From a virus, in IMG/VR virus record IMGVR_UViG_3300024983_000001, positions 1 through 64,000 of that record: a stretch of 64,000 nt of DNA. One strand, written 5' to 3'. The position numbers and the translations under genes are program-made. Position 1 is the first letter of the stretch. The number at the start of each line of letters is the position of its first letter. The notes beneath the pieces were generated by a model. It had not been told where the DNA came from. It did no database searches and worked only from the letters and a program-made list of their open reading frames with translations. Below, piece by piece: positions 15,158 to 16,818 of this stretch.

Positions 15158-15826
15158 CTAGTTTGTGGCAACTTGCTCCAATCCCTCAACATCATCGGTT
15201 ACTTTCCCAACTTTTTTGCTGGTTTTGGGTTTGGTTTGAATCGTCGATGTTTTTGTTAGATCCTTAAACATCTTGTTTAACCGCTTACGAACATCATCTG
15301 TATCTAACCATAGGTCCTCACCTTTCGTAATACGCTCAATTTCTTCGTGTGTCAAAAATGGATAACACAATTTTTTCATTAGTTTGTTAAACCATTTCTT
15401 TGTAGCTAGTAATTCGGCCTCTTGTTCATTGCCTTTACCATACATGCCGCTTGAATATGTGTGAAACATCATTTGACAGTCTTCATGAACTTGGAATTCG
15501 TCACCAGCAAGAAAAAGAAGTGTGCCTAGCGAATGTGCGGTTGATTCTAACACAGTAACTACGTGGGCTTGTGAACTACGAATGGCATTGATGATTTGCA
15601 CACCTGTATCTAATCTACCGCCTGGGGTATTAAGATGAATATAGATAACATCTTGTGGATTTGCTACTTTAATTCGGTGAATCATATCAACGTATTCGCC
15701 TGGTTCTCCCACAGGATCGCTTATGTAAAACGATATGTGTTTTGAAGGAATTGACATTTCGTACATCGAATATGGAAGCTGTTTGAACTCATCCTTACGT
15801 GTACTCGTTTTTTTATTATGGGACAT
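15158..15826 (-). CDS. clpP: ClpP-family serine protease
   Basis: HLNTPGG, AHSLG (Ser), MMFH (His), EDLWL (Asp). Confidence 0.85.
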   Translation of the reverse strand: MSHNKKTSTRKDEFKQLPYSMYEMSIPSKHISFYISDPVGEPGEYVDMIHRIKVANPQDVIYIHLNTPGGRLDTGVQIINAIRSSQAHVVTVLESTAHSLGTLLFLAGDEFQVHEDCQMMFHTYSSGMYGKGNEQEAELLATKKWFNKLMKKLCYPFLTHEEIERITKGEDLWLDTDDVRKRLNKMFKDLTKTSTIQTKPKTSKKVGKVTDDVEGLEQVATN

Positions 15827-15908
15827 ATAGATTCCTTCTGTTATGGTTATAATTATGTTCTAACTACAAACGTATTTATTATACCAAACTTTTTTGAAGA
15901 CCTCAATG

Positions 15909-15933
15909 AAAAAGGCTCCCGAAGGAGCCTTTT
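15909..15933 (-). terminator. Intrinsic terminator ending the tmRNA transcript
   Basis: AAAAGGCTC-CTTCGG-GAGCCTTTTT (UUCG loop) on minus strand. Confidence 0.85.
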
Positions 15934-16195
15934 AACCGTTTTGTTACAACGTGGTCAACGTCGGATTAGGCTGCAAGAGCCATATCGAAATGCGAGTCAT
16001 TTGCATTTATAGTTTTTGCTAGATTAACGTGATTCGCCTCACGAGTCTCTTGTTGTCATAATTCCCGTCAATCGATACCGTGGCATCCCCAGTGTCATTC
16101 AACATAAATAGATGTGGAATGGGTGCATATTATGGGTGGAGATGGAGGGAGTCGAACCCTCTTCTTGCCCAGCTTTGCTACAACCGTCATCAACT
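15934..16195 (-). ncRNA. ssrA: Circularly permuted (two-piece) tmRNA; acceptor piece ~16195-16134, intervening segment ~16133-16091, coding piece 16090-~15934; tag (A)ANDSHFDMALAA
   Basis: GGGGAUG (16090-16084) pairs with CAUCUCC (16144-16138) including G3.U70; discriminator A; T arm GAGGG-UUCGACU-CCCUC; resume codon GCA at 16004 after AUAAAU; tag ends LAA-UAA at 15966. Confidence 0.93.
16103..16110 (+). promoter_or_regulatory. Late promoter (CATAAATA) inside the tmRNA intervening segment, facing the endonuclease
   Basis: CATAAATAGATG at 16103-16114 is identical to the 12-mer at 326-337 upstream of the other endonuclease. Confidence 0.55.
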
Positions 16196-16200
16196 GGATA

Positions 16201-16208
16201 TATTTATA
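16201..16208 (-). promoter_or_regulatory. Late promoter TATAAATA for the tmRNA precursor
   Basis: Perfect TATAAATA immediately 5' of the acceptor piece. Confidence 0.7.
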
Positions 16209-16209
16209 C

Positions 16210-16818
16210 ATGAAGAATCGAAAAAAATCAACAATTTCCCTTACGTGCACAAAGTGTGGGGATCCCTTTGAACGAACCGTGTCCGATCACCAACGCCGTT
16301 TGAATAAGTTGCCAGATAGTACGAACTTCTTTTGTGGGAGAAGTTGTAGTTCAAGTTACCGTAACAGTCATCGTGCTAATAATGGTAACCATTTAAAGGA
16401 ATATCGGTTTGTGGTGGGTGATACCGCACGAATGGTATACGATCGGAATTTTACGTGGTATATTCATCGGCTCACTACAGATCGCAGACGTGGTTTAAAA
16501 TATAGCGGCGATCGGTTAGAGTTGCAGAGCATGCTAATGGATCAGTGGAAAATACAACAGGGGCGATGTGCCATTACTGGTGTACACTTACAATTACGAA
16601 TTGGCGCATCTGGTCAGTGTGACACAGATAATGTGTTCCAGATTGCCTCGGTCGATCGTATTAACAATGAATTGTCGTACACAAAAGGAAACGTACAGTG
16701 GGTTTCAATGGCGATTAATCGAGCCAGAGGGAACACAGATTTGTCTTTATTTAAGGAGCACTTATCCAACCTCGTGCAGACTATAGAGACAATTAATCAA
16801 GAACAATACAAAAAATAA
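16210..16818 (+). mobile_element. His-Me finger (HNH-like) endonuclease with N-terminal zinc ribbon
   Basis: CTKC and FFCGRSC; QQGRCAITG...SVDRI...YTKGNVQWV...IN. Confidence 0.7.

Follow-up and report, generated by a model that had tools for sequence, protein, structure and literature searches.

The tmRNA is an RNA that frees stalled ribosomes. A two-piece form has been experimentally validated in Caulobacter crescentus, where a permuted gene gives rise to separate coding and acceptor pieces that carry out trans-translation (Keiler, Shapiro & Williams 2000, as cited in PMC3985003), and the betaproteobacterial two-piece tmRNA is that of the Rhodocyclaceae lineage of Sharkady & Williams 2004 (cited in PMC3985003 and PMC9004378). 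Loss of the pseudoknots PK3 and PK4 is typical of two-piece tmRNAs according to reviews (PMC3985003, PMC3968760). Among phages, Buchholz et al. 2022 reported that 53 of 133 unique tmRNAs are two-piece, with 50 of those coming from aquatic phages, and a two-piece ssrA has been described in the Methylophilales phage Melnitz (PMC9004378). Two-piece tmRNAs are already known in phages, and the gene presented here is a beta-type addition to them; the rarity in phages implied by an earlier note on this DNA does not hold, since such genes are both published (PMC9004378) and abundant in IMG/VR.

The window, meaning the whole stretch of DNA that was analyzed, is 64,000 nucleotides long and opens a 257-kb IMG/VR record (IMGVR_UViG_3300024983_000001), of which it covers positions 1 to 64,000. 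The record derives from an uncultured T4-like jumbo phage of wastewater bioreactors and has a CheckV completeness estimate of 78%. The genes around the tmRNA (topoisomerase II large subunit, primase, DHFR and RNA ligase) are the usual T4-like phage set. Very probably the locus is a genuine phage two-piece tmRNA gene of betaproteobacterial architecture that has long been kept in a clade of large T4-like phages.

Detection and anatomy of the tmRNA gene

ARAGORN, run in its default mode, calls a permuted tmRNA (tmRNA*) on the minus strand at 15875–16226, with the tag ANDSHFDMALAA. The Rfam family for permuted tmRNAs (tmRNA_permuted, RF04321) is matched over its whole length, model positions 1–213, and scores 103.2 bits where the threshold is 47 (E 5e-19); a search of the whole record confirms this. 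The beta_tmRNA family (RF01850), with a threshold of 84 bits, is passed marginally: the score of 90.4 bits (E 6e-26) is the lowest in the compared set, where bacterial-like copies reach 270–280 bits. Detection of the tmRNA is far beyond chance. The earlier note had proposed a circularly permuted tmRNA gene at this place, and every element that it listed is found on the minus strand; the check that it outlined, with ARAGORN and with one- and two-piece covariance models, returned a permuted call from ARAGORN and scores above threshold for both RF04321 and RF01850. Its expectation that standard annotation could miss the gene is not borne out, as the gene is found both by ARAGORN with default settings and by Rfam searches that apply the gathering thresholds. 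The features of the locus are as follows, in window coordinates.

16201–16231, minus strand: promoter region, with TATAAATA at 16208–16201 and a −35-like TTGATT at 16231–16226, 17 nt 5′ of TATAAA (sequence reading).
16135–16195, minus strand: acceptor piece, about 62 nt once the A is added (the RF04321 model starts at 16195; the 5′ end is placed from the promoter position).
16195–16162, minus strand: 3′ strand of P2, in the acceptor piece.
16161–16145, minus strand: T arm, GAGGG/UUCGACU/CCCUC (sequence reading).
16144–16138, minus strand: 3′ strand of the acceptor stem, CAUCUCC, with the discriminator A and CC at 16137–16135.
16091–16134, minus strand: intervening segment of 43–44 nt (44 if the C standing in place of the CCA terminal A is included), which would be removed in maturation.
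15907–16090, minus strand: coding piece of about 184 nt, made up of GGGGAUG, the D-loop analogue GGUAUCGA, the 5′ strand of P2, PK1, the tag, PK2 and the terminator (the 3′ end is placed from the terminator).
16090–16084, minus strand: 5′ strand of the acceptor stem, GGGGAUG, which starts the coding piece.
16018–16043, minus strand: PK1, with stem 1 CGUG/CACG (4 bp) and stem 2 GC..A with U.GC.
15966–16004, minus strand: tag frame, with the GCA resume codon, 12 codons giving ANDSHFDMALAA, and UAA (ARAGORN).
15932–15963, minus strand: PK2-type H pseudoknot, with stem 1 CGACGU/ACGUUG, stem 2 (UU)GACC/GGUU(AA) and loop 3 UAACAAAAC.
About 15909–15933, minus strand: intrinsic terminator GGCUCC-UUCG-GGAGCC plus U5 (these letters occupy 15929–15909), which aligns to the RF01850 terminal hairpin.
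15906–15878, minus strand: promoter of clpP, TTGAGG-17-TATAAT, sigma70-like and TG-extended, which immediately follows the tmRNA terminator.
15158–15826, minus strand: ClpP-like serine peptidase gene, directly downstream of the tmRNA (PF00574 2e-13; phrog_1827 5e-57).
16210–16818, plus strand: divergent endonuclease gene of homing-endonuclease type (phrog_3322 and phrog_1035, endonuclease and endonuclease VII, ~1e-14).

Several points emerge from this arrangement. First, the gene runs to about 15907 rather than ending at 15934, and its two pieces measure about 246 nt together (62 + 184), not the ~215 nt from which the RNA had been called minimal, with no room for pk2–pk4. An Rfam span of 342 nt, compared with 295–384 nt in relatives, is the usual size of a beta-type two-piece tmRNA; PK1 and a PK2-type knot are both retained, and only PK3 and PK4 are missing. 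Secondly, several elements are present as the earlier note had described them: the tag frame, the promoter-like motif and the terminator belonging to the tmRNA gene are all located in the sequence, GGGGAUG lies opposite CAUCUCC so as to form the G3.U70 alanine pair, and CCA is not exactly encoded, the tail reading ACC-C at 16137–16134. Thirdly, the coding features follow known patterns, with an upstream context for the resume codon (UAAAU-GCA) that equals the beta_tmRNA consensus, and a tag (the AANDSHFDMALAA tag) that ends in ALAA, is of the canonical hydrophobic degron type and is closed by an in-frame stop.

Two of the helices are weak in this copy. P2, whose pairs were read by hand and from the Rfam alignment because MAFFT misaligned the P2 arm of the window, consists of about 12–14 pairs with interruptions; its duplex energy is −9.4 kcal/mol, and several of the pairs are marked non-canonical by the Rfam alignments. 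PK1 has all four pairs of stem 1 and three of the four family pairs of stem 2, and the knot is weak. An alternative fold, the MFE cofold in which the arm of the acceptor piece pairs with the last part of the tag, at −19.5 kcal/mol, was rejected, as a shuffled arm equals or exceeds its binding to the coding piece in 334 of 500 cases.

The intervening segment contains no ORF and is at the long end of the family range of 15–45 nt. The divergent endonuclease gene is a neighbor that lies outside the tmRNA, and it is missing at the corresponding position in two contigs with related loci (L108 and L109). We note that CATAAATAGATG occurs within the intervening segment at 16103–16114 (+), ~100 nt 5′ of the endonuclease ATG at 16210, and that the endonuclease ORF, if GTG-extended from 16114, would overlap the acceptor piece.

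Covariation, promoter and proposed maturation

A search of IMG/VR with a single degenerate pattern describing the permuted tRNA-like domain recovered 85 contigs, 83 of them with a permuted call from ARAGORN, representing 59 unique sequences; a stricter pattern recovered 19 bacterial genomes, nearly all of which are Rhodocyclaceae (Accumulibacter, Propionivibrio, Azonexus and Rhodocyclus). The earlier note had said beforehand that relatives lacking covariation in the acceptor stem would speak against the gene. That covariation is present: at positions left free by the pattern, the acceptor stem pairs at 7 of 7 positions (9 combinations) and the T stem at 5 of 5 (14 combinations) in all 71 of 71 unique relatives. 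In a 40-sequence alignment 96% of the cells are paired, compared with 80.5% in shuffles and 39–52% with the partners slid, and compensatory changes are seen in 26 of 38 pairs, both PK1 stems included. PK1 stem 2, entered as a pseudoknot, covaries among these 40 sequences (UA27/CG11/AU2 and GC29/CG7). The PK2-type topology is possible in 51 of 66 unique relatives, compared with 22% of shuffled sequences, and its stem 1 reads CGACGU/ACGUUG in the window where the bacterial stem reads CGGGG/CCUUG, a difference that amounts to one compensatory exchange of G-C to C-G. Compensatory change among related sequences is strong in every helix. The phage two-piece tmRNA is probably functional.

The motif TATAAATA upstream of the acceptor piece has 34 copies in the genome, and 20 of these sit 10–45 nt 5′ of an ORF starting with ATG, against a background of 5.2% (p 1.5e-17); control motifs with the base composition of TATAAATA show a far weaker association with gene starts. 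Late promoters of the T4 type have a motif at about −10, have no −35 requirement, and are read by a gp55-type sigma factor, and the enrichment before gene starts argues that TATAAATA is a real signal of this type. A homologue of T4 gp55 was not found by a genome search or by tblastn at E 10 in the record, which is estimated to be 78% complete. The tmRNA copy of the motif also reads as a sigma70-like TTGATT-17-TATAAA, and the Rfam beta_tmRNA model aligns this stretch over the columns of the bacterial sigma70 promoter. From the promoter sequence late expression of the tmRNA is plausible, and early-plus-late expression would be equally possible. We also note that TATAAATA occurs just 5′ of tRNA genes or clusters at genome positions 183282, 215422, 131786, 132252, 176621 and 176701 (+), for example 10–13 nt before tRNA-Pro (183300) and tRNA-Ser (215443), and several small RNAs of the phage may be driven by late-type promoters.

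The tail of the acceptor piece departs from that of most viral copies, in which ACCA is encoded in 51 of 59 unique sequences and ACCC in only 4 of 59; ACC-C is usual for the Rhodocyclaceae type, and the RF01850 consensus tail is ACCcA. The phage has 48 tRNA genes, and CCA is encoded by 43 of 49 tRNA-type genes. It also encodes a tRNA nucleotidyltransferase at genome positions 206947–207612 (+) (L114:1396–2061; PF01743 1e-26, phrog_2244 2e-42), and either this enzyme or its host counterpart could complete the ACC tail. The nucleotidyltransferase is 221 aa long with the head domain only, also matches phrog_24229, and lies near one tRNA cluster, outside the window. With 48 tRNA genes, a tRNA nucleotidyltransferase and an RNA ligase in the phage, the tmRNA fits the pattern of large phages that carry their own translation-maintenance kit.

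The absence of smpB from the window, recorded in the earlier note, extends to the whole 257-kb record, and SmpB was likewise not found in five other large phage records with a permuted tmRNA, including one that is 94% complete. Because the record has no SmpB gene the RNA must use host SmpB, and it must also rely on host AlaRS, EF-Tu and RNase P. From known tmRNA biology we infer every step of the following pathway. Transcription would start at the TATAAATA/TTGATT promoter and stop at the UUCG terminator to give a single precursor of ~290 nt, whose upstream acceptor 3′ half would pair with the downstream GGGGAUG 5′ half to form a tRNA-like minihelix. RNase P would cleave 5′ of G16090, the 44-nt intervening segment would be trimmed back to ACC, and a CCA-adding enzyme, such as the one encoded by the phage, would supply the terminal A. 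Charging by host AlaRS via G3.U70 would be followed by delivery, through host SmpB and EF-Tu, to ribosomes stalled on broken mRNAs, where translation would resume at GCA, append ANDSHFDMALAA and terminate at UAA. The ribosome would then be recycled, and the tagged peptide would pass to Clp-type proteases via its ALAA end, with the adjacent phage ClpP as a plausible partner.

The clpP neighbor and the origin of the gene

The only less ordinary feature of this tmRNA is that it lies, at a constant position, immediately 5′ of a phage ClpP gene. The ClpP of the window matches PF00574 at 50.9 bits against a cut-off of 20.2, and alignment to solved ClpPs places the triad residues in AHSLG (Ser), FHT (His) and EDLW (Asp). 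The order of tmRNA then ClpP on one strand is conserved in three diverged lineages, those of the window, of L108 and of L109–L112; the ClpPs of the latter two are 57–59% identical to that of the window and have a strongly diverged permuted tmRNA directly upstream, with the tags ANDAFYHEDFALAA and ANDAFYGEMRLAA, both open frames ending in LAA. In four further lineages (L044/L067, L054, L063 and L080) a canonical ClpP gene (PF00574, 105–117 bits) is located 1.3–1.9 kb 3′ of the permuted tmRNA on the same strand. We found no description of a tmRNA–ClpP linkage in the literature.

Some of these loci have individual features. The permuted tmRNA at L108:2660–2910 (+), whose ClpP is 59% identical to that of the window, is uncalled by ARAGORN; its acceptor stem is normal, its tag is ANDAFYHEDFALAA and TATAAATA lies upstream, but its T loop is UUAUCAUAUA instead of UUCGAxU, and it is either a variant of the tRNA-like domain or a decaying copy. 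In L080 (8002–10296) a GroES (Cpn10) gene directly follows the tmRNA, and a cell-wall hydrolase gene precedes clpP in both L054 and L080.

As read from gene order, the clpP linkage supports a putative pairing of tagging and degradation, and it yields a cheap and concrete hypothesis, that the phage ClpP degrades proteins tagged by the phage tmRNA. In a stronger form, tmRNA and ClpP would make up a dedicated phage tag-and-degrade cassette by which nascent chains, of host or phage, are routed to a phage-controlled Clp protease, the purpose being, for example, amino-acid recycling or the clearing of products of cleaved mRNAs, with general ribosome rescue secondary. The order kept in the window, L108 and L109–L112, the canonical ClpP genes downstream in the four further lineages, the residues of the window ClpP that align with the Ser-His-Asp triad and the ALAA end kept in the tag are all in keeping with such a cassette. 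However, the two genes have separate promoters with a terminator between them, and the position of the clpP promoter right behind the tmRNA terminator makes the two neighbors look like separately timed transcription units. The phage also gives no AAA_2 hit that would indicate an unfoldase of the ClpX or ClpA type, its sole AAA protein being the clamp loader; ClpP is found near the tmRNA in only 10 of 85 phage loci, most of which show none; and an interaction does not follow from linkage alone. We regard the dedicated cassette as rather unlikely. Similarly tentative, and in our judgment doubtful, is the proposal that promoter, two-piece tmRNA, terminator and clpP form a phage-owned proteostasis unit in the clade of large T4-like phages. 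If it were true, the phage would bring the tagging RNA and the peptidase and borrow only SmpB and an unfoldase from the host, it would control the fate of stalled-ribosome products during infection, and the recurrence of ClpP in seven viral lineages, once together with GroES, would reflect functional coupling and not chance.

The tags of the diverged orthologues also bear on whether the RNA is a working rescuer at all, or instead serves as a decoy or inhibitor, by titrating the SmpB of the host or by competing with the host's own tmRNA. Such a role would be compatible with the weakened P2 and PK1 stem 2, with the imperfect CCA tail and with a phage that does not bring SmpB, and it has a precedent in what has been proposed for the TLD-only RNA of mycobacteriophage DS6A (cited in PMC4131195). 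Against it, the tag frame is intact, with a consensus resume context, an in-frame stop and a canonical degron, and both PK1 and PK2 are kept; moreover, the syntenic orthologues in diverged phages have open tag frames ending in LAA, which is unexpected if only the tRNA-like domain mattered. A decoy is very unlikely on this evidence, and a functional two-piece tmRNA remains the preferred reading.

The same synteny is informative as to origin. The GC content of the tmRNA gene is 40%, compared with 59% in its bacterial counterparts, and in a tree that is indicative only, being built from a short alignment with a midpoint root, the phage copies fall outside the tight Rhodocyclaceae cluster with the window gene on a long branch. 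The tmRNA stretch is present in 10 DNA runs from 6 studies of bioreactors or wastewater, no RNA run being recorded for it, and the IMG/VR pattern search found an identical copy in 2 other contigs; among 50,697 GenBank phage records the gene gave no blastn match. Synteny with a diverged ClpP, the GC content, the long branch and the identical copies elsewhere together point to vertical inheritance within the phage clade, not recent capture. That the locus is instead recently captured host DNA, an assembly chimera, or a pseudogene in decay that plays no part in the phage, could be argued from its architecture, which is that of Rhodocyclaceae tmRNAs from the same bioreactor habitats, and from its ACC-C tail, which is the bacterial state. 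This explanation is disfavored by the difference in GC, by the long branch outside the bacterial cluster, by the identical copy in independent contigs and runs, by the synteny across phages whose ClpPs are only 57–59% identical and by helices that are all still paired, and we consider it highly improbable.

Habitat and tmRNA type suggest a Rhodocyclaceae host. When the tmRNA of a relative was compared by blastn with GenBank phages, only the tRNA-like domain was matched, in phages of Stenotrophomonas, Pseudomonas, Xanthomonas and Acinetobacter. The match spans the T arm, the intervening segment and the 5′ acceptor strand in KU682439 (Stenotrophomonas DLP_6), MZ593728 (Acinetobacter BUCT628) and AP018399 (Xanthomonas XacN1), and these isolated phages seem from their sequences to carry permuted tmRNAs, mostly unannotated. 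The hosts of these three phages presumably have a one-piece tmRNA, so that the type of tmRNA found in a phage is a poor marker of its host.

Comparison with known systems

The one-piece phage tmRNAs (those of the mycobacteriophage Bxz1 group and of Bacillus phage G) and the TLD-only RNA of DS6A resemble the window RNA in being phage-borne ssrA that depends on host trans-translation. All of these have the standard, non-permuted order (PMC4131195), and DS6A lacks a tag frame, whereas the window RNA has one. With the tmRNA of Caulobacter crescentus the predicted window RNA shares a permuted gene and a reduced number of pseudoknots; the Caulobacter gene differs in being of alphaproteobacterial descent, sitting on the chromosome and acting with the cell's own smpB.

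Melnitz and the pelagimyophages (PMC9004378) are closer in setting, since they too have a permuted ssrA in a lytic T4-like phage, with no phage smpB reported there and with translation maintenance or tagging for degradation as the proposed roles. In Melnitz, however, the ssrA gene follows the alphaproteobacterial pattern, is preceded by an early promoter and is linked to a glutamine riboswitch (PMC9004378). The window gene follows the beta pattern, is flanked by a late-type motif and a terminator of its own, and adjoins clpP; Rfam calls no riboswitch in the window.

The closest likeness is to the betaproteobacterial tmRNAs of RF01850. Gene order and helices are the same (P1, T arm, long P2, PK1, tag, PK2-type knot and terminal hairpin), as are the UAAAU-GCA resume context and the ACC-C-A tail, and the overall length is similar; the PK2 topology and a UUGUAAC-type loop motif are shared with the Rhodocyclaceae copies. 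The core of the tag is also similar, ANDERFALAA in the bacteria and ANDSHFDMALAA in the phage, the phage tag being two residues longer. The differences are that P2 in the phage is weaker, has been rearranged and carries an additional distal helix (AGUU/GACU), that the sequence of PK2 stem 1 is changed and the GC content is 40% instead of 59%, that the phage TATAAATA motif replaces the bacterial TATAAT, and that the carrier is a phage without smpB. Set beside these systems, the locus adds a well-characterized beta-type example, and it shows that such genes pass vertically within a phage clade instead of being recent captures from a host, and that they travel without SmpB.
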